Part shown: positions 5,008 through 49,682 of the stretch, piece by piece
Numbering within the stretch: the stretch's first letter is position 1
Layout of the letters: each line of letters starts with the position of its first letter
Source: Candidatus Bipolaricaulota bacterium
GTDB lineage: Bacteria > Bipolaricaulota > Bipolaricaulia > UBA7950 > UBA9294
Direction of reading: 5' to 3'
Length of the DNA: 64,000 nucleotides
Assembly: GCA_028277345.1 (NCBI GenBank)
Contig: JANQGM010000006.1
Span: 110,535-174,534, forward strand
Translations under genes and position numbers: made by a program
Notes under the pieces: generated by a model
Told to the model about the DNA's origin: nothing
The model's database searches: none
What the model saw: the letters and a program-made list of their open reading frames with translations, nothing else

Positions 5008-6066
5008 TCATGCGAGCAGGATTTTGCAGGCACGCAGGATCGACAAGCTAACCCAAAGCTGAAGCTCTCTCGTCTTGGCGTTCTCGGCCGCCTTGTGGAT
5101 CTTGGAATAGGAGTGTTTCCACAATCCCGACGACGTTTGATTCTCGACCAGCCAGTCCAAAGCTTGAGTAATTCGCGGGTGATCCAGCGTGAACCCGAGG
5201 AGAGACAGAGAATCCAATGCTGAAACGAGATCCGTCCACCAAAAGGGGTACTGGAACCGGAGCCAATTGTCGGGATGCTGATAGGACGAGTGATTGTTCC
5301 TCTTGAAGAGCGAATCCGCCAACAGCTGTCCCGCCTGCTTGGCTTCTGGAGACGTTGAGTAGAACGAATGCGTTACGAACCCCCGGATGACCATGCCTGT
5401 TCCCGCATGCCCAAACGGCTGATCGCGATCGAAATCTCTTCGAGTCCCGACAAACTGGGTCGTCAGCGCATCCCGCTCCTCGCGCGAGTAGGTGCCCATG
5501 CATCCCGGACTCCCGATCACCCAGCCGCCATCGTTTTGCCGCATCGACAGTAGCCAATTCATGGCAGCCTTTACCCGAGGATCGTCCTCATATCCCGAGC
5601 GGTTGAGGTTAGCCACGATGATGCCGTTGTAATACGGTGCGTATTGCTCGCCAATGATTCCGCGGATGTCGCCCTCGTCCGTTTGGCAAGAAAACAGATA
5701 CTCCGCCGCCCGCTCGATACAGGGGTGCGATCGATTCAATCCATATTGATTCACCAGGATGTTGGTGAATCGAAACGTTTCCAGGAGATCGTAGTTCTGT
5801 GCCGGATGCTTGGCCTTGTTCGCAGATTTCGACAGCCAATGTCCGTCGGCGGTTTGCCTCTTGATGATGTCCCGGACGTCGTCCAAGGCCCAGATCTCAG
5901 ATAGGTCCCGGACCGGCTCCTGAAGGAGATCCCTTCGCGTGAAGTAAATGACGGCAGGATTACCTGATTCCAACAATGGCGTCACGGGATCATATGCAAA
6001 ACACTTGACCCAACTGACTGCCGTCATGTTCAGTCCATCCTTTGAGACACAGTTGCCCCAATCCAT
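5008..6066 (-). CDS. prenyltransferase / squalene-cyclase-repeat (alpha/alpha toroid) protein
   Basis: Recurrent QW-type repeats: KRQTADGHW, SCQTDEGD, MRQNDGGW, ENQTSSGLW. About 350 aa, no signal peptide seen. Confidence 0.7.
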   Translation of the reverse strand: MDWGNCVSKDGLNMTAVSWVKCFAYDPVTPLLESGNPAVIYFTRRDLLQEPVRDLSEIWALDDVRDIIKRQTADGHWLSKSANKAKHPAQNYDLLETFRFTNILVNQYGLNRSHPCIERAAEYLFSCQTDEGDIRGIIGEQYAPYYNGIIVANLNRSGYEDDPRVKAAMNWLLSMRQNDGGWVIGSPGCMGTYSREERDALTTQFVGTRRDFDRDQPFGHAGTGMVIRGFVTHSFYSTSPEAKQAGQLLADSLFKRNNHSSYQHPDNWLRFQYPFWWTDLVSALDSLSLLGFTLDHPRITQALDWLVENQTSSGLWKHSYSKIHKAAENAKTRELQLWVSLSILRACKILLA

Positions 6067-6131
6067 GCTGTTTCGAGCAATCGGACGAGGGGCACCGCAG
6101 TCATTCTATCCGCAGCCTCTGTCGTCAACCT

Positions 6132-6824
6132 TCACACGACGTTCGAAGCCTCGTTCGGAGTTGGAGCAGCTGTTGCGGCAGGCGGCTTTCGCACCAGTGT
6201 CAAGGGATGCTGCTCGTCCTTCTCGACGTACTGCTCGCCGTATCCGTGTCCAAGGATTCGTTCCCGAACGATCTCGAACCCTACACCCTCAAGCAGTTCC
6301 ATGGTGTCCGAGAAGCTCAGCTTGCTCCAGTACATGTCATTGCCGAAGAAATCGTGCTTGATATAGGGTTCAGTCCTATCCTTTGTCAATGAAACCAAGA
6401 AATACCCGCCCGGGCGCAGCCACGCCCAGACTCTCTCAAACAGCCGACCGTGCTCATCTCTTGGCAGATGGAACAGCATGAAGATGGCGACGACTGCATC
6501 GTACGCATTCTCAGCCAGCACAAGGCCGGAAACGTCACCAAGCTCAAATCGGGCCTCCGGAACATTGACTTCGGCCAACCTGACCATCGCTTCCGAGATA
6601 TCGACGCCGGTCACGCGATAGCGCTCCGATAGCGCGCGAGCAATAGGAACACCAGCACCGCAACCAAGATCGAGAACCGCCGATCCTTCGGGAAGCACCC
6701 CAAGGAGGGGAATGATCTGATCAGCATCATCTTCCGCTCTTCGGGGTGCATAGACATCTGCACAGGCATTGTACCCATCGCGCACAATCGCCTTGGGATC
6801 GATTCTCTGAGTGATGCGCTCCAT
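6132..6824 (-). CDS. class I SAM-dependent methyltransferase
   Basis: Motif I VLDLGCGAGVPIA, motif II/III AIFMLFHLP, LRPGGYFLV. Start moved to ATG 6824 (MERITQ), which has AAGGAG 8 nt upstream. The ORF-track start 6950 would overlap the GNAT gene. Confidence 0.85.
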   Translation of the reverse strand: MERITQRIDPKAIVRDGYNACADVYAPRRAEDDADQIIPLLGVLPEGSAVLDLGCGAGVPIARALSERYRVTGVDISEAMVRLAEVNVPEARFELGDVSGLVLAENAYDAVVAIFMLFHLPRDEHGRLFERVWAWLRPGGYFLVSLTKDRTEPYIKHDFFGNDMYWSKLSFSDTMELLEGVGFEIVRERILGHGYGEQYVEKDEQHPLTLVRKPPAATAAPTPNEASNVV

Positions 6825-7557: not shown

Positions 7558-7744
7558 TCACTTTAGCAGCCATCGATCGCATGTCGTTCCCATAAGCGGG
7601 ATGGTTCATGGGAACGCGCCGTTGAGAACGCCACGGATCAACCGAAAAACACCTAACCCTTAGCAGCTCTAACATCACTCGACAGATGCCGTGCTCCAGT
7701 ATTCGAAGTCATCCGACTGCAGCTGAACCCAGGTATCCGAGCCT

Positions 7745-7880
7745 CCCGCCAATCTCTTCCGTGAGATAGCCGATGTTTCGGAACAGATCCTTCGCAAACT
7801 GCTACTCGGAATCGAGTTCCTTATAGGAATTCTGGAGGTCACGAATGCATGGATTCTCTTCTGGCCGTCGCTTCACTCTT
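7745..7880 (-). pseudogene. decayed N-terminal remnant of a MazG-like gene
   Basis: DNA aligns with 15560-15700 and 12780-12900. Translation ...ENPCIRDLQNSYKELDSE*QFAKDLFRNIGYLTEEIG carries an in-frame TAG and lacks the C-terminal half. Confidence 0.6.
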
Positions 7881-8038
7881 AAGCACTCTCCCTGCAATCA
7901 ATCTGGCTAACTATATCCGGAACGCTTTAGTGAGGTTCCACGCATCCTCCGGCGCAAGCTCTCTGCTCATGCACTTGTGAATTAGGTATATGTCCCCCGG
8001 AGTTTTGCATTTGTCACATCAATTGGGTCGGTTGCCTA

Positions 8039-8067
8039 TTGAACGACCTGCTATTCTGTGTTACTAT
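8039..8067 (+). promoter_or_regulatory. putative sigma70-type promoter of the PadR operon
   Basis: TTGAAC-17 nt-TACTAT, 48 nt upstream of ATG 8115. Confidence 0.35.
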
Positions 8068-8114
8068 ATACCGGTAGTGAGTATTGCTTAATAGCATGGA
8101 AAGAGGATTTTGAG

Positions 8115-8441
8115 ATGGAAAACCTTACGGAAATGCTCAAGGGGATCTTGGAAGGCTGTGTCCTCGAAATAATCAGCCACGAGGAAATCTATGGCTACGA
8201 AATCACTCGGCGCCTGAACGCTCTCGGTTTTTCGGACGTTGTGGATGGAACAACCTATACGATCTTGATCCGGCTTGAGAAAAATGAGCTCGTAGACATA
8301 GAAAAAAGGCCATCCGATATGGGACCACCAAGGAAATTCTACACGCTCAGCAATGCGGGACGCCAGGAACTCCGACACTTCTGGGAAAAATGGGAGTTCA
8401 TTGCGTCAAAAATCAGCGAATTAAAGGAGAGGCATTCATGA
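8115..8441 (+). CDS. PadR family transcriptional regulator
   Basis: LEGCVLEIISHEEIYGYEITRRL...DGTTYTILIRLEKNELV winged-helix pattern. Start at ATG 8115 with AAGAGGA upstream. Confidence 0.85.
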   Translation: MENLTEMLKGILEGCVLEIISHEEIYGYEITRRLNALGFSDVVDGTTYTILIRLEKNELVDIEKRPSDMGPPRKFYTLSNAGRQELRHFWEKWEFIASKISELKERHS

Positions 8442-8800
8442 GAAATCCAATTACGTATTTCAAATACATCGCTCAGGAGAAGCGCAGGTACAAACACATG
8501 CTAGCCCGCGCCAAAGCGTTGCCAGAGGAATACGCTTTCATGTTCGACAAGATTCAACAGTACATGTGGATTCATGCGGCGGGCGACGGCATGGGGATGA
8601 TATCGATTCTCAGCGGTTTGCTTGATCTGTTTGAGGCAGGCGTGACAGAAGGCAAACGCGTCCTCGAAATAACAGGTGCTGACGTAGCCACGTTCTGCGA
8701 TGAGCTTTTGCGTAACACGAAAACGTGGACCGCAGACTGGCAAAAGGCATTGAATCGCGACGTCAGAAGGAAACTCGAACGGGAGAGCGATTTCAAATGA
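8438..8800 (+). CDS. DUF1048 domain protein (usual PadR partner)
   Basis: ARAKALPEEYAFMFDKIQQYMW...LLDLFEAGVTEGKRVLEITGADVATFCDELL. ATGA overlap with the PadR stop. Confidence 0.7.
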   Translation: MRNPITYFKYIAQEKRRYKHMLARAKALPEEYAFMFDKIQQYMWIHAAGDGMGMISILSGLLDLFEAGVTEGKRVLEITGADVATFCDELLRNTKTWTADWQKALNRDVRRKLERESDFK

Positions 8801-9570
8801 CTGATTTAGCGATACGTACAAAGGGATTGAAAAAGTCGTATCAGACGGCAGAAGTCCTAAAAGGCGTTGACTTCGATGTGCAGCGCGGCGAGGTTTTCGC
8901 CCTGCTTGGCTCGAACGGAGCAGGGAAGACGACGATCATAAGAATTCTCGTCACTTTGTTGAGGCCCGACGGGGGCACGGCATCTGTGAGTGGCTTTGAT
9001 GTTTCGAGAGCACCCGAAAAAGTACGGCAGTCAATCAGCTTAACCGGGCAATTTATCGCTGTGGATGAGGTGCTGACCGGACGGGAAAACCTGCACATGA
9101 TTGCTAGGCTACGCCATCTCGATGACCCTCGCGGTATCGTCGAGAAATTGCTAGAACGCTTCGGGCTAACAGACGTCGCTGATCGCAAAGCGGGAATGTA
9201 TTCAGGCGGAATGAAACGCAAGCTTGACCTTGCCATGAGCCTTGTGGGTAACCCCTCGGTGGTCTTCCTTGATGAGCCTACGACGGGGCTTGATCCGGAA
9301 GCACGCCGTGAGGTTTGGGAAATGATAAAAGAGCTCGCGAACATCGGCACTACGGTTTTTCTGACTACTCAATACTTGGAGGAGGCTGAAAAACTCGCGG
9401 ATCGAGTTGCGATATTGCATGAAGGCCGAATTATCGTTGATGCGACGCTTTCAGAGCTGAGAAAACCTCTCCCACCCACCCAAGTCGAATATGTGGAAGC
9501 CCAACCGACACTGGAGGAGATCTTCCTGTATATAACCGGAAAGGAAGTGAGCAAGAAGGGAGGAAACTAA
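8797..9570 (+). CDS. ABC transporter ATP-binding protein (DrrA/ABC-2 type exporter)
   Basis: Walker A GSNGAGKTT, signature YSGGMKRKL, Walker B VVFLDEPTTGLD. ATGA overlap with the upstream gene. Confidence 0.9.
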   Translation: MTDLAIRTKGLKKSYQTAEVLKGVDFDVQRGEVFALLGSNGAGKTTIIRILVTLLRPDGGTASVSGFDVSRAPEKVRQSISLTGQFIAVDEVLTGRENLHMIARLRHLDDPRGIVEKLLERFGLTDVADRKAGMYSGGMKRKLDLAMSLVGNPSVVFLDEPTTGLDPEARREVWEMIKELANIGTTVFLTTQYLEEAEKLADRVAILHEGRIIVDATLSELRKPLPPTQVEYVEAQPTLEEIFLYITGKEVSKKGGN

Positions 9571-10341
9571 ATGGAAACGAGATACTTCTTCAGTGACATG
9601 AGCATAATGTTGGGGCGTTCCATGCGGCATATCTTTCGCAGTATGGACACTATCTTCACGGTCGCTATCACGCCGCTCGCGCTGATGCTCTTGTTCGTTT
9701 ACGTGTTCGGCGGTGCGATTCAGTCAGGGGTGGATAATTACGTGAACTATCTGCTACCAGGTATCCTTCTCATTACCATTGCCAGCGGCATCGCATATAC
9801 GGCGTATAGGCTGTTTCAAGATGTGCAAAGGGGGATATTCGAACGGTTCCATTCCATGCCAATCGCTCACTCAGCCGTTCTGTGGGGACATGTTCTGACA
9901 TCACTGGTTTCGAATGCGATTTCGATTGTTCTTATCTTGCTTGTCGCGCTGTTGATGGGGTTCCGTTCGCCTGCCGGTGTATTGTCATGGCTTGCCGTGA
10001 TCGGAATACTCGCACTTTTTACCTTGACACTGACCTGGATTGCCACTATCGCTGGACTATCGGCAAAAACCATTGACGGAGCGAGCGCATTTTCGTATCC
10101 GCTTATACTTCTCCCCTTTATCAGCTCGGCCTTCGTACCGACAGATACGATGCCTACCATTGTTCGGGTTTTCGCAGAACATCAACCGGTAACTTCGATC
10201 GCAGACGCTATACGTGCGCTGCTGTCGAACCAGCCAGTCGGGAACAACCTCTGGATTGCCGTCGCGTGGTGTGCCGGAATCATGGCTGTAGCGTATGTCT
10301 TTGCCATGAGGGCGTATAAACGTCGAGTACTAGGCCGTTGA
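9571..10341 (+). CDS. ABC-2 type transporter permease
   Basis: Six hydrophobic segments. Abuts the ATPase gene (stop 9570, ATG 9571). Confidence 0.85.
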   Translation: METRYFFSDMSIMLGRSMRHIFRSMDTIFTVAITPLALMLLFVYVFGGAIQSGVDNYVNYLLPGILLITIASGIAYTAYRLFQDVQRGIFERFHSMPIAHSAVLWGHVLTSLVSNAISIVLILLVALLMGFRSPAGVLSWLAVIGILALFTLTLTWIATIAGLSAKTIDGASAFSYPLILLPFISSAFVPTDTMPTIVRVFAEHQPVTSIADAIRALLSNQPVGNNLWIAVAWCAGIMAVAYVFAMRAYKRRVLGR

Positions 10342-10738
10342 TCAGTCTTATGCCAGAGATATGCTCAGAATCGTTCATTCAGTTCTAAGCTTGCGTTTAT
10401 TCGAGAATAGTAACCCGCATAGCATCGTTACACTTCCAGTGCCCTTCAAATTGCTGACGATATCCGTGTGAAGTTGATCGCCGTACACCCCATCGAGAAC
10501 TCGATGGCACATCAATCGAGACCTAAATCTAGGCAGTCAACCTATGATTAGTGTGCAAACTTCCGGGATAGCACAAAAGTGCTCTCCTCTCTGATTTCCT
10601 GCAACTTAACCGCCATCATCTTGGCTTGTCGTTGCCAAGTTACACCATTCCGCAACCGATCAGCTGATGATAGCCCTCGCAAAGGAGACATAATTGTCGA
10701 GTGAATCGTTTCCGCCGCCGTTCAACTGCAGCCGCTGG

Positions 10739-10975
10739 CTAGGTCGCACTTTCGTCAGTGGACTGTACATCGCGGTACTCAACCCTGACAGTCAAATGAG
10801 GTTTGATGCCGGATAGCGCAGGCAAAAGGTGGTTCAGCACCTGCTCAGCAGTCGCTCGAAATTCGCGTCCTTGGGTGCTGACTTTAACCCAGCCCTGGCC
10901 GTCACGGTAATACCGCTCCGTGGCGTTTGCTGTATCAATCAGGATGACGTAGCTGTCATTGGTAAGCTTCATCAC
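10739..10975 (-). CDS. hypothetical small protein (cassette-like ORF)
   Basis: 78-aa ORF. GTTAGGA lies 7 nt upstream of its ATG, and the stop is embedded in CCTAGC. No recognisable family. Confidence 0.45.
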   Translation of the reverse strand: MMKLTNDSYVILIDTANATERYYRDGQGWVKVSTQGREFRATAEQVLNHLLPALSGIKPHLTVRVEYRDVQSTDESAT

Positions 10976-10982
10976 GATTGCA

Positions 10983-11053
10983 TCCTAACGCTTGAGTTCA
11001 GCGGCGACAAAGCCGCGTAGCGAGTTTGCCGTCCGACTGCACGATTTGCTAGG
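10983..11053 (-). other. candidate attC-like recombination site
   Basis: Minus strand GCCTAGCAAATCGTGCAGTCGGACGGCAAA-loop-TTTGTCGCCGCTGAACTCAAGCGTTAGGA. An imperfect palindrome with bulges, ends resembling R'' (CCTAGC) and R' (GTTAGG). It sits exactly between two minus-strand ORFs. Confidence 0.35.
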
Positions 11054-11405
11054 CATCAGTATGCTTGATGTTGGTTGTGCCGCCGAACGATAGTTTGTTT
11101 CCATCTGGGTCAAGATAAGTTACCTTGCATATTTCATTCGGGAAAAACTCTCGGCTACCAACCTCCAAGCCGCGCTGCGCAATAGCCTCTATCGTTGATT
11201 CCAGAGATTCGACCATCTGCATGAGAATTGCGTGTCCAGCGTGTTCTGGAGCCAATACGATGTATACATACTGATGATCAGCGAGCTTCCACACTGCTTC
11301 CGTTTCATGCGGGGAAAAATCCGGTTTCCTCCCGAATATAAGCTCATACCAGCCAAGAGATCTCTGGAAGTCAGTGACTGGCACACCAGAGAAGAGATCG
11401 CTCAT
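11049..11405 (-). CDS. VOC / glyoxalase-bleomycin resistance family protein
   Basis: 118 aa, VTDFQRSLGWYELIFG...VTYLDPDGNKLSF. GTTAGGC lies 7 nt upstream of the ATG. Confidence 0.8.
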   Translation of the reverse strand: MSDLFSGVPVTDFQRSLGWYELIFGRKPDFSPHETEAVWKLADHQYVYIVLAPEHAGHAILMQMVESLESTIEAIAQRGLEVGSREFFPNEICKVTYLDPDGNKLSFGGTTNIKHTDA

Positions 11406-11549
11406 CTTTGATGCCTAACCATGAATAGTGTGCAGACATACGGTAACGAGCTAGAAAATTCCATCTCTGATTTTCTATGAATAGAACGCGACACCTTTAA
11501 TTCCCCCCTCTGTATTGGCGTTGATATTCTCGCATGCCATGCTCCTATC

Positions 11550-11745
11550 ATGATACTTCTCGATCAAGTTTACTCCGCATTCTCCACTAAGCACTACTCC
11601 CCACGGGCGGAGGATGCGTATGTGCAATGGATTGATAGATCTTTGCAGTTCCACCCACAAGCAAGAAGGGATGGATTCTTCCTCGTGACATAACGGCAGA
11701 GCACGTGAAGTCGTTTCTCACAGACCTTGCTGTCCATCGCCACTC
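11550..11745 (+). pseudogene. truncated, frameshifted integron-type tyrosine recombinase (N-terminal SAM-like domain only)
   Basis: Own translation: MILLDQVYSAFSTKHYSPRAEDAYVQWIDRSLQFH, stop at 11691. A shifted frame then gives ILPRDITAEHVKSFLTDLAVHR. Compare IntI-type ...[33 protein letters not shown]...EVEAFLSWLANERKVS. The catalytic domain is absent; the sequence is cut where the amidohydrolase gene ends. Confidence 0.6.
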
Positions 11746-11749
11746 CTGG

Positions 11750-12541
11750 TCATGTCTCCATTGGAAGCGATGTTCGTGTGTGCTCGCGCAAGAATCGCAA
11801 CGGATTCTCCCACGCAATCCTGCTGAGATCAGTTTCGCTGAATCCCAAAGATTGGAAAGCCATGAGCGCATCGTCAAACGAGAACTCAGGATAGTCGCTT
11901 CCCCACAGAAGCCGATCCTCAGGGACTAGATCGAGAAGCCACTTGAAGTGAGGCGCATAGGTGCTATTCGCGAACACGTTCTGTGTGGCCGAGGTATCGA
12001 AGTAGAGATTGTCAGGGATGCCATGCTTGAGCCAAACGGAAAGCTGCAGAAACTGAGGGCCTCCCGAGTGAACCATGACGACGGGAAGTTCGACCTCGTG
12101 TGCGAAAAGCGCAGTCTGGAGCGGAATGCCAAGATCGGAGTCCGTGACCGGACTCGAATGCACTTGAATGATCCATGGCTTGCTCTTGATACGCTCGATC
12201 ACAGGACCGATCACAGAACGATAGTCCGATCCAACGAAGCTGTTCGGATAGATCTTGATCCCGATGATGTTCGGGTTATCCCCGAACTGCTCAATGTCCT
12301 CTATCCCTTCCGCGAGATTCTGACCATAGACATGAAGCAGGCCCTTAAACCGGCTATCGTGCTCGGTGACGGCGCGATCGAGTGTTTCAGCAGGCAGGCC
12401 GTGCGCGACGATGCCAAGTTCGATTCCCGACTGATCCATCAAGCCCAGGGTTGTGCTCACATGCTTCCGGAATTCATCACTCCAGGAATCGTCGACCCCA
12501 TCCTTCGAGAGGTGCATATGACTATCGATCATGCGCTTCAC
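11750..12541 (-). CDS. amidohydrolase-2 family metal-dependent (TIM barrel) hydrolase
   Basis: N-terminal MIDSHMHL metal-binding motif, internal VHSS/VMVHSGG, C-terminal LLWGSDYP. Confidence 0.8.
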   Translation of the reverse strand: MKRMIDSHMHLSKDGVDDSWSDEFRKHVSTTLGLMDQSGIELGIVAHGLPAETLDRAVTEHDSRFKGLLHVYGQNLAEGIEDIEQFGDNPNIIGIKIYPNSFVGSDYRSVIGPVIERIKSKPWIIQVHSSPVTDSDLGIPLQTALFAHEVELPVVMVHSGGPQFLQLSVWLKHGIPDNLYFDTSATQNVFANSTYAPHFKWLLDLVPEDRLLWGSDYPEFSFDDALMAFQSLGFSETDLSRIAWENPLRFLREHTRTSLPMET

Positions 12542-12563
12542 TCCACGCCACCTCCCATTGCGC

Positions 12564-12926
12564 TCATTCCGAAGCTTCGTCAGTTCTCCAAGATCGATCG
12601 AGATTCTTCTCCATCTTGGTCAGATAAGCACTCTGCAGATCGACCTCAGCATAGTTCGCAAGCTTGAGGATGTAGGCAAGGCAATCGGCGAGTTCCTCGC
12701 CGACATGCGCTCTGGCACGCTCAATGTCGTTGGATTCAGACGCTCGTTTCAGTGCACGCGCCGCCTGGACCACCTCACCAACCTCTTCCGTGAGATATGC
12801 GATATTTCTGAACAGATCTGTGTCAAACTCTTTCTCGGAATCGAGCTCTTCGTGGAATGCCTGCAGATCTCGTAAACGTTCGGTATCTACCAATCTTGCA
12901 TTCAATCCCCAATACACCTCGTACAT
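12564..12926 (-). CDS. MazG-like nucleotide pyrophosphohydrolase domain protein
   Basis: LTEEVGEVVQAARAL...VGEELADCLAYILKLAN (EExxE / EExxD metal-binding helices). Paralogue of 15365..15736. Confidence 0.75.
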   Translation of the reverse strand: MYEVYWGLNARLVDTERLRDLQAFHEELDSEKEFDTDLFRNIAYLTEEVGEVVQAARALKRASESNDIERARAHVGEELADCLAYILKLANYAEVDLQSAYLTKMEKNLDRSWRTDEASE

Positions 12927-13036
12927 TCGAAAGTTCTTTGCTGCCGAGTAGAGCTAGCTGATCAACTGCGGCCAGTGCTTTGGCGGCTTCATCACAAACC
13001 TACTTCTAAACAAGCAGTCAGTCTTTGGTGAACCAA

Positions 13037-13450
13037 CTACCAAACGTGCTTGCACACCTTGCATCTGCGATCTTTGTAAAGCAAGAGCCAAAGGGGATTA
13101 GCCGTTAGAAGGCACAACAAGACAATCACACTACGGAACAGAGTATTTCGATTGATCTCCTGAGATTGACAGGCTGGGCACTGAGATTCAATGTGCTCCC
13201 GATATCGCATTTGCTTTTCGTAATACCCATCGAGAACCCTCTTCGCATGCTCGTAATCAGAGCTGTCAACTAGGAGCTTCACACCCCCTATCGCGGGTGA
13301 GTAGAGAGGTTGAATGGCTACAGTATGTTCATCAACCAACTCAGAATGGATGTTCTCGCCTTCAAGATACAGTTTCGCTAATCGCGCGTCTATCGGCTCT
13401 CTAAAAGCCCCTGCTATGATTTGATTCTTCTGAATAGCCATATCCATCAA
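13037..13450 (-). CDS. DUF2007-like protein with C-terminal CxxC...CxxC and a TM segment
   Basis: N-terminal half resembles the putative signal-transducing DUF2007 fold (ARLAKLYLEGENI...VDSSDYEHAKRVL). Then CPACQS, a hydrophobic helix, and CKVCKH. Confidence 0.55.
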   Translation of the reverse strand: MMDMAIQKNQIIAGAFREPIDARLAKLYLEGENIHSELVDEHTVAIQPLYSPAIGGVKLLVDSSDYEHAKRVLDGYYEKQMRYREHIESQCPACQSQEINRNTLFRSVIVLLCLLTANPLWLLLYKDRRCKVCKHVW

Positions 13451-13675: not shown

Positions 13676-13845
13676 GTCATTGGCTTTCACGCGACGCATA
13701 GTTGCAATCCGCGCGGCTGAAGGAGGGATATGCGCAAACGACACATGGTTCTGGGGGCAAGTGGGCCGATCGCCGCCTACAAGGCGGTCGAGGCGGCGAC
13801 CAAGCTCGTTGGCGAAGCCTCGTTCCGAGACATCCCAGATTTGTC
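13676..13845 (+). pseudogene. displaced copy A of the coaBC promoter plus 5' coding end
   Basis: TTGGCT(13680)-17-TGCAAT(13703), GAAGGAG, ATG 13730. Translates MRKRHMVLGASGPIAAYKAV/EAATKLVGEASFR with a 54-bp internal deletion relative to 18688..., then a stop. Confidence 0.7.
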
Positions 13846-14017
13846 CTATCGGTATGTGTACGCCCCCAAGTAGTCGCCGAGCGCGCTGGCAACGTCCCCG
13901 CCAACCGTCATCCTTGCTCTGCCTTGGGTGGCCACTTTGCCGCACGGAGGTTCTGCGGTTGCGCCGCGAGATAGGTCTTCCTATAGTGGTTGGCCGATAG
14001 ACGGAGGAACCAGGAGT

Positions 14018-15181
14018 ATGGCGCAAAAACGCATCACTTCAATCGATATCATGAGAGGCCAGATGATTGCGTTCATGGCTCTCGACCACGCCGGGGTGTT
14101 TCTATTTCGCGGTCTGCACGACACATCGGAAGCCTGGGATATAGCGGTTCGGGTTCACCCTTCATTCGTTTCGTTTCTAACGCGCAACCTCTCGCACCTC
14201 TCGGCTCCAGGGTTCGCGTTGCTACTTGGAGTATCCTTCGCGATGTTCGCGAGATCACGCAAAAGCCGTGGCTGGAGCGATGTCCGGATCGCCCGTTTCT
14301 ACGCAACTCGCGGTCTCCTGCTCATCGCCATCGAGCAACTCGTGGTGAATCCGGCATGGCTGCTGCAATTCCTTCCGCGAACGCCCGACTGGACGTTGGC
14401 TTCGTCAGCCGCATCGGACGTATCCGGCGTATTCCTCGCGTTCGGAATCCTCTCTACCCTTGGCATAGCCATGGTGCTCTGGTCGTTCTGCCGAAGTCTG
14501 GCATCGTGGGCAGTCGCCATCCTTTCGGCAGCGGCGATATTGACGACATCGATTTTCATCCCGGCGATTGATCAGGCTGGAACGACGTTTCATCCGCTCT
14601 ACACGCTTTTTGTATTGAACGGAATATCGCCGCCTCTCTCGGCGAGCTTCCCGATTCTCCCGTGGTTTGGAGTGGTCGGTCTCGGAATCCTCCTCGGTCG
14701 ATGGATGCTCAAGGAAACATCGAATCATCCGCGTGGATTTCTTCTAGCTGGCCTCGTTTCGCTGTCGCTATTCGTCGTGATCCGATCGATAGGTGGATTC
14801 GGTAACATTCACCCGCCGTCGGGCGGATTCTACGCATTCTTCGCACTCACCAAGTATCCGCCAAGCCTGGTGTTTCTACTGCTCTACCTTGGACTCAACT
14901 TGATCGTACTCGCCGGCTTGAGCTATGCGTTTGACCAACGCCGAACCGGCGGAGGCATTCTCAAGAGCTTCGGCTCATCGTCGCTCTTCTTCTACGTTGT
15001 TCATCTTTATGTCTATGGCATCCTGGGAATCGTGGTGTGGGTCGTCACCCCGTTCCCGCGCGGACTCATCTGGGTCTATCCATTCTGGTTTCTCGGCCTG
15101 GCGCCACTCTACTTCGCCTGTCGCGGCTACCGTAGCTTCAAAGAGTCGCGAAGCCCTAACTCTATCTGGCGAATGTTGTAG
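14018..15181 (+). CDS. DUF1624 / heparan-alpha-glucosaminide N-acetyltransferase-like membrane acyltransferase
   Basis: RITSIDIMRGQMIAFMALDHAGVF N-terminal signature, followed by about 10 hydrophobic segments. Start moved to ATG 14018 (GGAGGAACCAGGAG upstream). Confidence 0.75.
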   Translation: MAQKRITSIDIMRGQMIAFMALDHAGVFLFRGLHDTSEAWDIAVRVHPSFVSFLTRNLSHLSAPGFALLLGVSFAMFARSRKSRGWSDVRIARFYATRGLLLIAIEQLVVNPAWLLQFLPRTPDWTLASSAASDVSGVFLAFGILSTLGIAMVLWSFCRSLASWAVAILSAAAILTTSIFIPAIDQAGTTFHPLYTLFVLNGISPPLSASFPILPWFGVVGLGILLGRWMLKETSNHPRGFLLAGLVSLSLFVVIRSIGGFGNIHPPSGGFYAFFALTKYPPSLVFLLLYLGLNLIVLAGLSYAFDQRRTGGGILKSFGSSSLFFYVVHLYVYGILGIVVWVVTPFPRGLIWVYPFWFLGLAPLYFACRGYRSFKESRSPNSIWRML

Positions 15182-15364
15182 CCCGCTGGATGATCCCACG
15201 GTAGATTGGCCCGGATAAAGCTCTCCCTTTCGACTGCCTACAGTACTGTCCCCACCGACCAAGGCGTCTGAATCGGGATTCCGCAAAAAGCGCAGCCGCT
15301 GCCTTGTCGAGCAATGGCCATTCGCTTCGTCTCTGCTGAGAAGTCGCCGCGCCTGCTCATGTCG

Positions 15365-15736
15365 CTATCTCCACGATCGATCGATGTTCTGCTTCATCTT
15401 CGACAGATAGGCTCTCTGAAGATCGACTTCGGCATAGTTCGCGAGCTTGAGAATGTAAGCGAGGCAGTCGGCAAGCTCTTCACCAACATGTGCCCTGGCA
15501 CACTCAATGTCGTTGGATTCGGACGCTCGTTTCAGTGCACGCGCCGCATGGACCACTTCGCCAATTTCTTCTGCCAGATACGCGATGTTCCGAAACAGAT
15601 CGGTGTCGAATTGCTTCTCGGAATCGAGTTTCTCATGGAAAACCTGGAGGTTACGAATGCATGGATTCTCTTTTGGCAGTCTCTTCACTCTCACATACCC
15701 TCCTGCGTCAAGTTCTAGCCATGTCTCTGGGAACAA
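15365..15736 (-). CDS. MazG-like nucleotide pyrophosphohydrolase domain protein
   Basis: LAEEIGEVVHAARAL...VGEELADCLAYILKLAN. About 85 percent identical by eye to 12564..12926. Confidence 0.75.
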   Translation of the reverse strand: MFPETWLELDAGGYVRVKRLPKENPCIRNLQVFHEKLDSEKQFDTDLFRNIAYLAEEIGEVVHAARALKRASESNDIECARAHVGEELADCLAYILKLANYAEVDLQRAYLSKMKQNIDRSWR

Positions 15737-15841
15737 CCTGACGTATCCCAGTCATCACCCGATCCTAGGTCCCGCCACTCACGCACAGGCGGATTTGAGG
15801 GATATGCTCCCGGAATCCCCACCGAACTCCACCAAGAGCCT

Positions 15842-16735
15842 CTACTCATTGTCGTTACCTTCTTCATATTCGATATCCAACAGCGAACTAGGAAGATCGA
15901 TGGGGAGAGACTTCGGGGAGGGAGGCAGTTCGACGCGCAAAATCCGTGCAATGCCTTTCCTAATGGCCTTGGCGAGCATGTCAGCATGAAGGCGAAATTT
16001 CCTCAAGTCAGCAGCATCCAAATCACTACGTGCATGTGCGAGGTCAATCCGGCTTTCGTAGACCTCTTCGGCACTGGCCCTGTCATAGCCTAGGATATCG
16101 CTTAATAAGTGAGTGACACGCTCTCTCAATCCGGGCCCAATTTTCTCTTCCCAACCGCAATTCTTGCATATGCGCACCCTCCCAGGGGCCCCGGTTTCTA
16201 TGCCGGCTAGTAAATCGAGCGCATTGTTGAAGGCAATCAATCGATCGATGCCATCGTCAGAACTCAGACCTCTCGCCCACCACCTGATCACACGCATGGT
16301 TTTCGCGTCGACATCAAGTGAGAGCCATTTGGCAGAAAGTTGAGCAGAGTCAACAACACCCTTAGCTTTCATCGCACCAGCAATAAAGCGATATTTCGGA
16401 GGCGAATCAGCGATTCGTCGCTTTAAACTGACCCCTCCGCGAACCCGTACTGGCCAACCTAAACTGAGCGTGGCAAGAGCGACAATCTTGTCAACAAGGT
16501 CCTTACCGCGTTCGTAGATCAAGTGTGGTTCTAGAGGTCCATCCGTGTTGTTGTCTATCGATATCACTGCTTCGAGTTTGTGAACTCCTGTCCACTCTGA
16601 GCTAGGCCCAAACTCGGGAGAGATCTCAAGACGCCGTACTCCCTCAACAGGCGGTGACGTAGAATCGAGTTGCTCGTCGACGATGAAAAACTCCCCCTGC
16701 AACTTTGCATGCACAATCCACTCCTCTGTTGACAC
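15842..16735 (-). CDS. hypothetical protein, 297 aa, with CxxC and an Rx4H (HEPN-like) motif
   Basis: Long ORF with coding-like composition. RICKNCGWEE, then ESRIDLAHARSD in a helical C-terminal part. No family recognised. Confidence 0.6.
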   Translation of the reverse strand: MSTEEWIVHAKLQGEFFIVDEQLDSTSPPVEGVRRLEISPEFGPSSEWTGVHKLEAVISIDNNTDGPLEPHLIYERGKDLVDKIVALATLSLGWPVRVRGGVSLKRRIADSPPKYRFIAGAMKAKGVVDSAQLSAKWLSLDVDAKTMRVIRWWARGLSSDDGIDRLIAFNNALDLLAGIETGAPGRVRICKNCGWEEKIGPGLRERVTHLLSDILGYDRASAEEVYESRIDLAHARSDLDAADLRKFRLHADMLAKAIRKGIARILRVELPPSPKSLPIDLPSSLLDIEYEEGNDNE

Positions 16736-17035
16736 ATCTCCTCCCCTACACTTATTTGGGCCAATTGCTCAGCTGTGGACTGTTCCATCCTATGGATTAT
16801 CCGTTCTGTCCGCAATCCGATCCATCTTCAGCCCTCACTCGCTGTGGAAAGTAGATCTCGCGATACTCGAAGGGATTCAGTCGCACAACAGAGATCAGGC
16901 TTTGAACCATACGGCGCAAACACATCCTGAGCCCCAAACTAGAGGTTTCCACGCGCATATCCACAACCTGAGCGTCAGGTGAATAGGTCTGCGCGATGTC
17001 TCAAATCGCTTGTACGAAATCGCGGTGCATTGGCT

Positions 17036-17159
17036 TCAGATCCTTCCCCCGATACAATCCGCGCGGCTGAAGGAGAGACACGCACGAACGTCACGTAGTT
17101 CTGGGAGTGAGTGGGGCGGTCGCCGCTTACAAGGCAGTGAATTTGGCCAGCAAGCTGAC
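17036..17159 (+). pseudogene. displaced copy B of the coaBC promoter plus 5' coding end
   Basis: TTGGCT(17040)-17-TACAAT(17063), GAAGGAGAGAC. The start codon is mutated to ACG. Matches coaBC to ...AAYKAVNLASKLT, then diverges at 17160. Confidence 0.7.
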
Positions 17160-17314
17160 AGTCGGTTCAGAAGACATGCGATCTTTATAGGCAATCCATC
17201 CCACACAGATAATCAGCTGGGGAAACCTGACTGACAGTCATGACACCATTCCTCTCTCGCAGTCATGTGGCTAGCGCTTCTCAGACCAGTGCATCATCGT
17301 GAAATTCCCAACAA

Positions 17315-17343
17315 TTGACTTGTTCGAGAGATTCTTGTAAATT
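17315..17343 (+). promoter_or_regulatory. putative promoter of the second DUF4143 ATPase
   Basis: TTGACT-17 nt-TAAATT in an AT-rich stretch, 45 nt upstream of ATG 17389. Confidence 0.3.
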
Positions 17344-17388
17344 AAATATTGAATGTTGAATTTACGCGACCGACAAGGAGGAACCAAT

Positions 17389-18585
17389 ATGCTGCCACGA
17401 ACACTTGAGTCTGTGATTCGTCAGGCGGCCCGACGCTATCCTGTGGTAACACTGACGGGGCCCCGACAATCGGGCAAGACCACGCTTGCCCAGATGGCAT
17501 TCCCTAACTACGCCTATGTCGGCTTGGAGGACCTAGATCAGCGGGAGTTCGCGACCTCCGATCCTCGAGGCTTCTTGTCGCAGTTCGACGGTCCTGTCAT
17601 CCTCGATGAAGCACAACGAACCCCCGAGTTATTCTCGTATATCCAGACACGGGCCGATGCGTCTGGCAAGAATGGCCAATTCGTGCTCACAGGCTCACAA
17701 AGCTTCCTGCTCATGAAATCCATCAGCCAATCCTTGGCGGGAAGAGCGGCCATCCATCATCTCTTGCCGTTCTCACAGGCTGAATTGCTGGGGCGCGAGA
17801 CGATCCCAAAGGGGCAGATTGGCACGTCCATTCCTCGTGCGCATCGGTCCGCGAAGAATTCATTGATGGAGACGCTGTTCACAGGCAGCTATCCAAGGAT
17901 TCACAACACGAAAGTTCCACCTCAGGACTGGCTGGCCAATTACTACCGCACCTACGTCGAGCGCGACGTACGCGAACTCCTGAATGTGGGGGACCTCGAA
18001 ACCTTCGGAAGGTTCATCGGCCTGTGCGCAGGCAGGACAGGGCAGCTCTTGAATCTATCTTCTTTATCGAACGATTGCGGGGTCTCTCAGCCAACTGCGC
18101 GACGTTGGATGTCCGTTCTGGAGGCAAGCTTCCTGGTTTTCCTCTTGCGCCCGCACCATCGCAATTTCAACAAGAGGCTCGTCAGGAGTCCGAAGCTATA
18201 CTTCATCGATTCCGGCCTACTCACCTATCTCCTGCGTATTCGATCGTCAGAGGAGCTGTACAACCACTCTGCACGCGGTGCAATCTTCGAGAGTTTCGTG
18301 ATATCCGAATTGCTCAAGAGGGCACTCCACCGCGGGCAGGAGCCAAATCTCTACTTCTGGAGGGATTCCACAGGACACGAGATTGACGTCCTGCTCGACC
18401 ACGGCAGCGCCCAGATCCCCATTGAGATCAAGTCCAGCGAAACACTCGCAAGCGATTTCTACAGAGGCTTGAGGTACTGGCTTGATCTTGCAGCATCCCC
18501 AGATGGCGCCGCCGCACTGATCTATGGCGGCGATCAATCCACGCTTCGAGAGGGCATCGCCACCTACTCGTGGAGGGAATTGTAG
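17389..18585 (+). CDS. AAA+ ATPase, DUF4143 / COG1373 family
   Basis: Walker A GPRQSGKTT, Walker B VILDEAQ, C-terminal GHEIDVLLD...IEIKSS. Start at ATG 17389 with CAAGGAGGAA upstream. Confidence 0.85.
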   Translation: MLPRTLESVIRQAARRYPVVTLTGPRQSGKTTLAQMAFPNYAYVGLEDLDQREFATSDPRGFLSQFDGPVILDEAQRTPELFSYIQTRADASGKNGQFVLTGSQSFLLMKSISQSLAGRAAIHHLLPFSQAELLGRETIPKGQIGTSIPRAHRSAKNSLMETLFTGSYPRIHNTKVPPQDWLANYYRTYVERDVRELLNVGDLETFGRFIGLCAGRTGQLLNLSSLSNDCGVSQPTARRWMSVLEASFLVFLLRPHHRNFNKRLVRSPKLYFIDSGLLTYLLRIRSSEELYNHSARGAIFESFVISELLKRALHRGQEPNLYFWRDSTGHEIDVLLDHGSAQIPIEIKSSETLASDFYRGLRYWLDLAASPDGAAALIYGGDQSTLREGIATYSWREL

Positions 18586-18630
18586 CGCCCTCCCTGACAC
18601 GGCGAAGTAAAGTCCAAATGGGATGTGGCT

Positions 18631-18659
18631 TTGGCTTTCGCGCGCCGCGTAGTTACAAT
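18631..18659 (+). promoter_or_regulatory. putative sigma70-type promoter of coaBC
   Basis: TTGGCT-17 nt-TACAAT, 29 nt upstream of ATG 18688. The same element is conserved in copies A and B. Confidence 0.45.
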
Positions 18660-18687
18660 CCGCCCGGATCGGAGCAGAAGGAGAGAC

Positions 18688-19884
18688 ATGCACGAACGAC
18701 ACGTAGTTCTGGGAGTGAGTGGGTCGATCGCCGCCTACAAGGCGGTGGATCTGGCCAGCAAGCTGACGCAGGCGGGAGTCGCCGTTCATGTCGTGATGAC
18801 CGAGGCGGCCACCAAGCTCGTCGGCGAAGCCTCGTTTCGCGCCATCACAGGCTATCCCGTGTCCACCAGCATGTTCGAGTTGACCAATCCTCACTCCATC
18901 GAACACATCTCCCTCTCCGAAATCGCTGACCTGTTCTTGATTGCACCGGCCACAGCCAATGTGATCGCCAAGGTCGCTGTCGGACTGGCCGATGACCTTC
19001 TCACGTGCACGGCACTGGCGACGCGTGCGCCCATCCTCATTGCGCCCGCCATGCACACGGCGATGTGGGAGAATGCGGCAACCCAAGCCAATGTGAAGAC
19101 GCTGCGAGAACGCGGTGTCGGGTTCGTGGGTCCTGACGAAGGGCGCCTCGCCTCGGGAGGTTACGGTGCCGGGCGGTTCGCGCCAGTTCCTGACATCCTC
19201 GGCGAGGCACACAAGCTCCTTGGAGCCAACGGGGATTTGGCGAGCAAGAAGCTCGTTATCACGGCAGGGGGCACGCGCGAAGCCATCGATCCCGTCCGCT
19301 TCCTCGGCAATCGCTCGACCGGCAAGATGGGAGTTGCCTTGGCCAAAGCAGCACGAGATCGGGGCGCGGATGTAACGCTGATTTCGGGACCGACAGATCG
19401 CTCAACGCCAACGGGAATGAATGTGATCCCCATTACATCCGCTGATGACATGTTGCGGGCCGTTCAAGACGCCTCGCCGGAGGCAGACGCCCTCATCATG
19501 GCGGCTGCGGTCGCAGACTATGCGCCAGCCAAACCGTCTCCTGAGAAGCTAAAGAAGGAAGATGGACCGCTCTCGATCGATCTGGAGCGAACGATCGACA
19601 TCCTCGATTCCGTTCGCAACGTTCCCGTACGGGTGGGGTTCGCGGCAGAATCGCAGGACCTGCTGGAGAACGCCGCACAAAAGCTGGACGCCAAGGGCCT
19701 CGATCTGATCGTCGCCAACGACATTTCGCGACCGGACATCGGATTCGCTTCGGACCACAACGCATGCACGTTGATTGATCGATCAGGCAGCATCGAAAAC
19801 ACCCCTATCCTCAGCAAGCGCGAGGTCGCGAATCACATCCTCGATCGCGTCGTCGGATTGCTGGATCGTGCAGCGGCAAAGTAG
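18688..19884 (+). CDS. coaBC: bifunctional phosphopantothenoylcysteine decarboxylase / phosphopantothenate-cysteine ligase
   Basis: VVLGVSGSIAAYKA flavoprotein N-terminus, PAMHTAMWEN, then ligase half ITAGGTREAIDPVRFLGNRSTGKMG...AAAVADY. Start at ATG 18688 with GAAGGAGAG upstream. Confidence 0.9.
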   Translation: MHERHVVLGVSGSIAAYKAVDLASKLTQAGVAVHVVMTEAATKLVGEASFRAITGYPVSTSMFELTNPHSIEHISLSEIADLFLIAPATANVIAKVAVGLADDLLTCTALATRAPILIAPAMHTAMWENAATQANVKTLRERGVGFVGPDEGRLASGGYGAGRFAPVPDILGEAHKLLGANGDLASKKLVITAGGTREAIDPVRFLGNRSTGKMGVALAKAARDRGADVTLISGPTDRSTPTGMNVIPITSADDMLRAVQDASPEADALIMAAAVADYAPAKPSPEKLKKEDGPLSIDLERTIDILDSVRNVPVRVGFAAESQDLLENAAQKLDAKGLDLIVANDISRPDIGFASDHNACTLIDRSGSIENTPILSKREVANHILDRVVGLLDRAAAK

Positions 19885-49098: not shown

Positions 49099-49682
49099 GT
49101 ATCAGCACTCCTCTTCTGACCAAAGATATTTGTAAGTAGGGCAATTATACCGTGTGTGCGAATCCTACAGTAAAACACATGGCTTGCGAGCGAACACACC
49201 GTTCTTGTTGATCCAATCCCTGCGCTTCTCCCCGGCAATTGATTCATGTAGCAATCGACGCATTTCACTATTTCCACCAATCCTGCAATTTCCTCCATCC
49301 ATCAGCCTTTTGAGAGCGTTGATGCGTCTCTGGCGTTGGCCATATCGCAGTTCCCTTGCAACTTTTTGCTGACACCAAGACGATCATGCAATCAAATCCT
49401 GGAGGTGTATCGTGGCAATAACGCAAAACCTTGCTTCGGAGTTCGAACTAACTGAGGACCAGATAGCCAGCCTTATCCACCTTGCAAACTCATTTCAGGA
49501 TCGAGTAATCCTTTGCCTGCTTCTGCATGTATCGAAGCATGTAACTGAGCAAGGAGACCTGAAATATGGACACCATTCCGGAACTAGGCATACCAGGCTA
49601 ACGAGACACTCTAAGGCTGTAGAGAAGCTATGTTTCTGATATAATACCGTTAGGGTGATTCAGAATAATTGAAAAGCGCCTG

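Follow-up and report, generated by a model that had tools for sequence, protein, structure and literature searches.

The stretch of DNA analysed here is a window of 64,000 nt from contig JANQGM010000006.1 of a Candidatus Bipolaricaulota bacterium (assembly GCA_028277345.1); "the window" denotes this whole stretch throughout. At 10535-11743 it exhibits the features of an integron that is no longer complete. A truncated gene for an integron-type tyrosine recombinase (intI_B) is followed on the opposite strand by a candidate attI recombination site, two small genes, a complete attC site and the left half of a second one. A short filler and a second, more decayed attI-like platform complete the locus (Table 1).

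Table 1 Features of the locus, in window positions. Boxes and arms of recombination sites are predicted.
Feature	Position	Strand	Basis
Platform A, apparently the older and more decayed	10535-10684	+	Alignment with family platforms; hidden Markov model (HMM); regular-expression match of the core
Junction filler, 27 nt, from the start remnant of intI_A to the left half of attC2	10685-10711	.	Without homology to platform or attC
attC2, left half only	10712-10744	-	ACCTAGC (R''), CAGCG, GCTGCAGTTGAACGGCGGCGG (L''); position at the stop of the open reading frame (ORF)
Cassette 2, 3'-truncated: 78-aa gene and left half of attC2	10712-10988	-	More than 1,400 homologue clusters; L042 homologue
attC1, complete	10983-11054	-	GCCTAGC (R''), AAATC, GTGCAGTCGGACGGC (L''), loop, GTCGCCGCTGAAC (L'), TCAAGC, GTTAGGA (R')
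Cassette 1, 430 nt: VOC/glyoxalase-fold gene and attC1	10989-11418	-	PDB 4n04; GTTRGGY boundary in L049, L050, L051
attI_B: crossover box GTTAGGC (11419-11413), core TGCACACTATTCATGGTT (11434-11417), variable stretch to the promoter block	11413-11512	-	Family alignment
Promoter-like block of intI_B, TATTGGCGTTGATATTCTCGCATGCCATGCTCCTATC, directly 5' of the ATG	11513-11549	+	Family consensus TATTGACATTGGTATCCTCGCATGTCATCCTAC; family-wide alignments
intI_B pseudogene, N-terminal SAM-like stub of ~64 codons	11550-11743	+	Pfam PF13495, TIGR02249, NF011946, likeness to G015 IntI

The intI_B stub reads MILLDQVYSAFSTKHYSPRAEDAYVQWIDRSLQFH in its first piece (11550-11654, plus strand) and, past a single frameshift between 11654 and 11666, continues as KGWILPRDITAEHVKSFLTDLAVHRH up to 11743. 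A convergent amidohydrolase gene (11750-12541) has its stop codon 6 nt past the stub end. In the Pfam scan, Phage_int_SAM_4 (PF13495) matched the first piece at E 3.4e-6 with a weak continuation on the second, and a catalytic domain was not found. Two NCBIfam models, TIGR02249 (E 3e-4) and NF011946 (E 2e-3), were the only matches at E <= 1, and both describe integron integrases. Over 65 residues, the frameshift-joined stub shares 57% identity (E 9e-16) with the IntI of a genome from the same family (G015), an intact protein that covers the whole of TIGR02249 (positions 1-315, 383 bits), and it is 36% and 30% identical to two more intact IntIs; blastp against the Xer-type recombinases of its own genome gave no match at E <= 1. 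The best likeness of the stub is not to Xer or phage integrases, and these comparisons identify it, at the level of sequence, as the remnant of an IntI-type integrase. A complete integron would encode the IntI-specific additional domain, but only residues ~1-64 remain, and the 64-kb window contains no other IntI pieces. A catalytic part was found neither there nor elsewhere in the 2.76-Mb genome (89.6% complete). The first-pass annotation had seen here the N-terminal domain of an integron-type recombinase with one frameshift and without its catalytic part, and had asked for a comparison with IntI and Xer proteins; the profile matches and the alignment with the G015 protein agree with it.

The two small genes are encoded on the minus strand. 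The VOC ORF (11049-11405, 118 aa) starts with an ATG 7 nt behind GTTAGGC (11419-11413), and the 78-aa ORF (10739-10975) with a GTG 7 nt behind GTTAGGA (10989-10983), the next ATG lying 10 nt behind the same box. Both stop codons lie within CCTAGC (11048-11054 and 10738-10744), which is followed by GCAGTCGGACGGC and GCAGTTGAACGGC. These core sites and embedded stops, with related sequence after them, had been pointed out from the letters of the sequence, and they are confirmed here. The 118-aa protein has the VOC fold expected by that annotation (PDB 4n04, E 4.4e-32), with a Pfam score below its cut-off.

Homologues of the VOC gene on three unrelated contigs (L049, L050 and L051) start at GTTGGGCATCAAAGATG, GTTAGGCATCAGAACGTG and GTTAGGTGTTAAAAATG. 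Each has GTT(A/G)GG(C/T) 7-8 nt ahead of the start codon, and the DNA 5' of the GTT is unrelated. The stop codon lies inside an R''-like RYYYAAC box (<=1 mismatch) in three of the four genes, that of the window included; L050 reads GCCTAAT. A further homologue, in Reinekea forsetii, belongs to a run of small co-oriented genes, with attC-like matches directly before it. The 78-aa protein is a member of a family with more than 1,400 clusters at 64-95% identity. Its homologue on a TARA scaffold (L042) starts with GTTAGGTCGCAACCATG, compared with GTTAGGATGCAATCGTGATG in the window, in the order GTTAGGT, 7 nt and ATG. The stop of this homologue lies inside ACCTAAC and a full attC comes next (34.9 bits), followed by a GNAT cassette with another attC (37.2 bits), while an intI gene with an internal deletion lies 5' of it. 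Because homologous cassettes share their GTT boundaries, the GTT boxes are best understood as recombination junctions and not merely as ribosome-binding sites. Through these homologues we find what defines a gene cassette, namely a TTRRRY 5' end, a 3' attC and occurrence in different contexts, and the comparison indicates that the VOC and 78-aa ORFs are true integron cassettes.

Some further properties of these homologues were noted. The L042 locus (TARA scaffold_1087, 5440-6700) is another decayed integron, in which the intI deletion fuses LLDQVRDTMRLKYYAYRMEKT to the C-terminal MIYTQVLNHGGKGVRSPL, and its attI has three direct repeats similar to AGTTTCTTGCGATC. The 78-aa family spans bacterial phyla and one archaeal metagenome-assembled genome, with ~24 invariant columns and no Pfam domain. 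The AlphaFold model of the 78-aa protein is confident (predicted local distance difference test score 82.6) and shows four strands, a helix and a strand, without a structural match in the PDB; a weak likeness to RusA (E 0.01-0.08) is probably due to chance.

Behind the VOC stop, attC1 forms a 72-nt imperfect palindrome with spacers of 5 nt and 6 nt, ending in GTTAGGA. A bulged T and a bulged A both lie on the L'' arm, which assigns the site to the cassette strand. The covariance models used for scoring (R1 and R2) were built by us from sites of relatives only, excluding the sequence of the window. The source sites adjoin intact or decayed intI genes in G034, G023, G137, G037 and G120 and have the form RYYYAAC-5 nt-L''...L'-6 nt-GTTRRRY; R1 was built on 5 sites and R2 widened to 11. 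R1 matched attC1 (10983-11054, minus strand) at 34.4 bits (E 8e-5 in 203 kb) and R2 at 39.2 bits (E 2.6e-6, filters off). attC1 is the sole match in the whole 2.76-Mb genome; the next-best R2 match in the window scores 13 bits (E 1.3). The site thus supplies the attC on the cassette strand of which a complete integron has at least one, and the bulged palindrome first noticed by eye is a model-supported attC with two extrahelical bases. A scan combining a regular expression with a stem requirement was too strict and did not pick up attC1, and an Rfam search returned no relevant family. A candidate at 49596-49655 on the plus strand (GGCTAAC...GTTAGGG at attC-like spacing; R2 12.7 bits, E 1.5) has no inner stem and was taken as chance; it sits within a 75-aa ORF in a low-GC patch.

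The first-pass annotation had placed attC-like sites behind both ORFs, of which only the first is complete. Of attC2 we find the left half, which has no independent statistical support: neither a right arm and R' nor a full-length model match was found. The half aligns with attC1 and with the cassette attC of L042, and its predicted identity rests on this likeness and on its position at the ORF stop. A longer attC2 ending at GTTAAGT or GTTGACT was rejected, as the candidate L' (GGCGGTTAAGTTGCAGG) belongs to the homology between platforms A and B and is followed by no R'. In homologous cassettes elsewhere the R'' box is CCTAAC with a TAA stop, while both boxes in the window are CCTAGC (10738-10744 and 11048-11054). 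The A-to-G change keeps the stop codon (TAG) and breaks the conserved AAC/GTT pairing beside the cleavage point.

The intI_B gene is preceded by a promoter-like block and by attI_B, whose counterparts in relatives were found with a DNA query (9600-12600) against 74 genomes of the family, the own genome (G000) included; the query matched the intI 5' region only. A plain Smith-Waterman comparison of attI_B with the loci of relatives had given noise. The alignments define a conserved module, consisting of a crossover box YCYAAC, the core ATGATTAGYGTGCA, ~80 nt of variable sequence, the block TATTGACATTGGTATCCTCGCATGTCATCCTAC and ATG-AAG-CTN-CTC-GAT-CAA. In G003, G170, G144, G145 and G152 the core (YCYAAC-N-ATGATTAGYGTGCA) lies ~100 nt 5' of the promoter block and ~130 nt 5' of the intI start. 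It is also present ahead of the intact IntI of G015, at a contig end, and is kept beside at least 30 family stubs. Elsewhere, homology of the VOC cassette begins exactly at the GTT of the attI_B box. The position 5' of intI and the end of sequence conservation at the GTT suggest an attI with a G|TTRRRY crossover, as in a complete integron. The block 5' of intI_B is a putative promoter. By eye, the conserved stretch 11513-11552 contains TTGACA, 17 nt and TGTCATCCT, with the intI ATG ~8 nt further, an arrangement that would leave the intI mRNA without a leader. A second motif found by eye, TTGATC-17 nt-TAGGAT on the opposite strand, lies inside codons 4-6 and the conserved block and could be a cassette promoter.

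The repeat of ~65 bp that the first-pass annotation had reported within this locus is real, and it turned out to be more than a repeat. Segments 11416-11476 and 10538-10600 are ~70% identical, with a Smith-Waterman score of 35 compared with 17.1 +/- 2.3 for shuffles (1 of 1000 reaching 35), and form the best such match within the 64-kb window. With a platform HMM built from eight relatives, the genome-wide E value is 0.009 for copy A (10537-10599), and copy B is recognized at E 1e-22. In copy A a crossover box (10535-10541, reverse complement GTTGACT) adjoins an attI core, AACCTATGATTAGTGTGCA (10539-10557), that is nearer to the consensus than that of copy B. A remnant of the promoter block (10625-10666) leads to ATGATAGCCCTCGCAAAG (10667-10684), ~6 codons of intI_A that match the start of copy B, ATGATACTTCTCGATCAAG. 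Copy A is therefore a second, more decayed platform comprising attI, intI promoter and ~6 codons, so that two dead platforms stand in tandem at the locus. Near 10637, the frame SSWLVVAKLHHSATDQ resembled a decayed N-terminus of IntI, but its spacing is wrong and the likeness was attributed to chance.

Several observations weigh against reading these features as an integron. With only one complete attC, the locus falls outside the strict definitions of an integron (IntI and attC) and of a cluster of attC sites lacking an integron integrase (CALIN; at least 2 attCs). The folding energy of attC1 is not better than that of shuffles (z -0.56), so that palindromes are uninformative by energy and the evidence for the site is architectural and comparative, not thermodynamic. 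The HMM score of the attC2 half (7.7 bits) is at the level of genome-wide noise. Both R'' boxes read CTAGC for CTAAC, a variant that also occurs in the attC of a relative (G137; L036:12461). A simple scan of the cassette strand passed no sigma-70-like cassette promoter, the GTTAGG motif could double as a Shine-Dalgarno sequence, and the 89.6% completeness of the genome leaves room for an IntI in its unassembled part.

Taken to their extreme, such points would make the locus a chance assembly of a generic Xer or phage integrase fragment, unrelated small genes, GTTAGG as ribosome-binding site and a terminator-like hairpin. The unexceptional hairpin energy would agree with this, as would the AGGA/AGG 7-8 nt ahead of both starts and the occurrence of PF13495 outside IntI. 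However, independently built covariance models match attC1 alone in 2.76 Mb, the stub matches IntI models and intact IntI only, the same GTT boundaries recur in homologous cassettes in unrelated contexts, and a terminator scan of the cassette strand found no T-run terminator. We regard chance resemblance as very improbable and already largely refuted. Our data instead favour the interpretation of the locus as an inactive relic of a chromosomal integron, to which we assign a probability of about 90%. The annotation made from the letters alone had arrived at the same reading, with a destroyed integrase, and the model match of attC1, the IntI-only matches of the stub and the cassette boundaries in unrelated contexts support it.

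The arrangement suggests how such a relic may have formed. An IntI-type tyrosine recombinase would have inserted circular cassettes through recombination of their attC sites with attI_B at G|TT, capturing the 78-aa cassette first and the VOC cassette, which lies beside attI, last. The integrase gene would then have been cut after ~64 codons and frameshifted, and the distal attC2 cut at its hairpin apex. The cut end of attC2 would now abut the older platform remnant with attI_A, its promoter block and ~6 intI_A codons, leaving two tandem dead platforms that bracket two cassettes. The cassettes may once have been expressed from the platform promoter. Recombination would by now require an IntI acting in trans, and the sequence would drift neutrally.

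A comparison with relatives bears on the age of the relic. Two TARA scaffolds (L040 and L041) are collinear with 7673-13290 of the window at 93.7% identity and contain the same relic, in which the VOC gene is frameshifted by a 1-nt deletion and the stub carries three other indels. As the relic is shared and its lesions differ, it predates the split of the two lineages and evolves about neutrally. The ABC operon differs from that of L040 by 1.2-2.2%, the pair of cassette ORFs by 3.4-3.9%, and each of attC1, attI, platform A and stub by 5-7%. To the right of the stub, divergence reaches 16.5% in the amidohydrolase gene and 11.3% in MazG. The jump lies right at the stub end (~11745), which argues that the relic ends at a recombination boundary.

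Whether such a relic is dead or dormant depends on a source of integrase. attI_B and attC1 are structurally complete, the VOC gene is intact in this genome, and half of CALINs are found in genomes with an IntI elsewhere (Cury et al. 2016, PMC4889954); the array could accordingly still be usable by an IntI from a mobile element or from the ~10% of the genome that is missing in the assembly. Yet no IntI over the cut-off is present in the 40 contigs (2.76 Mb, 89.6% complete), both sites carry AGC where R'' has a conserved AAC, the divergence of the relic is neutral in rate, and the VOC gene is frameshifted in the sister lineage. Three more platform copies in the genome (C5:25280-25480, minus; C31:6063-6261, plus; C2:35309-35405, minus) have no detectable attC and are all stubs with stops or no start, so that all five platform copies, at 4 loci, are stubs. 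A merely dormant array is improbable in our view. A TetR gene follows both the C31 copy and a platform in another family genome (G145:C15), which suggests that the two platforms are an orthologous old relic.

Within the reading of the locus as an integron relic, the tandem platforms may have arisen in two ways. In the first, two complete integrons stood head to tail and a single deletion ran from the attC2 loop to codon 7 of intI_A, perhaps started by cleavage of the extruded attC hairpin. The break falls exactly between L'' and the missing L', the identity of only ~70% between the two platforms is what platforms of different genera show, and the same layout is seen in G145:C15, where a stub with attI is followed by three cassette attCs and a distal attI-only remnant. 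No trace of the deleted part remains, however, 27 nt of filler occupy the junction, and tandem stubs without any attC exist in another genome (G182:C99). We tentatively consider this deletion plausible, at somewhat less than even odds.

In the second, a homologous fragment, circular or one-sided, that brought along a platform with its cargo would have integrated additively, by a Campbell-type event or by displacement, and duplicated its anchor, the same process that would account for the coaBC and GNAT 5' scars in the window. This agrees with a platform stub directly upstream of coaBC in G145:C2, with a step from 2-7% to 11-16% in the comparison with the TARA relative, located exactly where the stub ends, and with the presence of up to 3-6 platform copies per family genome, some in tandem. 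Three points stand against it: neither a circular intermediate nor a donor is known, what lies between A and B is nothing more than the cassette array of B, and genes downstream of the stubs are co-oriented with them in only 15 of 30 cases, so that promoter capture is no general driver. Additive integration is possible but doubtful.

An IntI over the cut-off was found in 5 of 184 phylum genomes and the 5' platform in 31 of them; within the family it occurs in 28 of 73 genomes at ~45 places, with stubs of 19 to 176 codons. One intact gene of the G015-type clade was found, and a query of 779 nt, taken from the 3' two-thirds of this gene in G015, matched in 8 other genomes only. Sites of the attC type were also seen at 11 other relic loci, on the side and strand that would be expected. 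Tandem platforms recur as two stubs 4.7 kb apart (G144:C46), in G145:C15, and as three same-strand stubs inside 5 kb, without an intervening attC, in G182:C99 (L068, 291-5213). The gene blocks of G182:C99 are bracketed by stubs, like the coaBC scars.

These stub counts, the multiple copies per genome, the tandem arrays without attC and the scarcity of 3' pieces lend some support to the idea that the attI-promoter-intI platform is preferentially kept or copied as a module in this family and is not a random leftover, although we consider this unlikely. Paired with coaBC as a second anchor, such a platform might provide homology for the additive accretion of genes, or it might be retained for its cassette promoter. 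Promoter capture is not supported as the cause of stub retention, as downstream genes are co-oriented in 15 of 30 cases and opposed in 15 of 30. If true, either role would represent a hitherto undescribed form of integron afterlife.

An intI stub of 31 codons, together with its attI, directly precedes coaBC in G145:C2 (L061, 7303-8801), which links the locus studied here to the coaBC 5'-end scars at 13676-18880. An integron next to coaBC may represent the ancestral state of this accretion zone. In the window, inserted blocks and dead copies of the coaBC 5' end (13676-18880) part the stub from coaBC. In the neighbouring stretch of L061 (4261-7300), two co-oriented genes for proteins of 401 aa and 590 aa make up one large cassette-like unit with an attC at its end (47.9 bits). 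This unit is possibly a defence module of two genes in the form of an integron cassette.

In class 1-type integrons, intI diverges from attI and the cassettes, and the cassette promoter Pc lies inside intI/attI. The locus in the window shares the divergent arrangement, the G|TTRRRY junctions, the position of the presumed newest cassette beside attI, and attC sites of the order R''-L''-L'-R' with 5/6-nt spacers and extrahelical bases. In contrast, its IntI belongs to a different clade, its attI core is TGCACRCTAATCATGGTT, resistance genes are absent and a Pc is at most putative. Sedentary chromosomal integrons with an inactivated intI, such as those of Xanthomonas pathovars, are inherited vertically; their integrase has decayed by frameshifts and truncation, and attI and cassettes persist. 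The same combination of a chromosomal location, vertical inheritance, a decayed integrase and persisting attI and cassettes is seen here, although the array is tiny (two cassettes), has two tandem platform remnants, and its attCs do not form a homogeneous species-specific repeat family.

The closest resemblance is to CALINs with an intI pseudogene. In the survey with IntegronFinder, CALINs were defined as attC clusters without an integron integrase, with at least 2 attCs within 4 kb and single sites discarded; intI pseudogenes, searched for through the C-terminal IntI domain, were found beside 15 of 279 CALINs, and integrase loss from a complete integron was proposed as one origin of CALINs (Cury et al. 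2016, PMC4889954). The relic in the window likewise has attC cassettes, no working integrase and an adjoining intI pseudogene. It differs from these CALINs in having one complete attC and a left half undetected by the models, fewer sites than a CALIN requires, and from their pseudogenes in being an N-terminal stub. Judging from the criteria in that paper, both the CALIN and the pseudogene steps of IntegronFinder would probably miss a relic of this type. As a single locus, it is an ordinary integron relic of a familiar kind, CALIN-like with an intI pseudogene, from a little-studied uncultured lineage, for which it adds a documented attI/attC/IntI clade. The wider pattern, with its numerous 5' stubs, its tandem platforms and the sharp recombination boundary at the stub end, could help to explain how integrons die and how accessory regions come to grow beside them.

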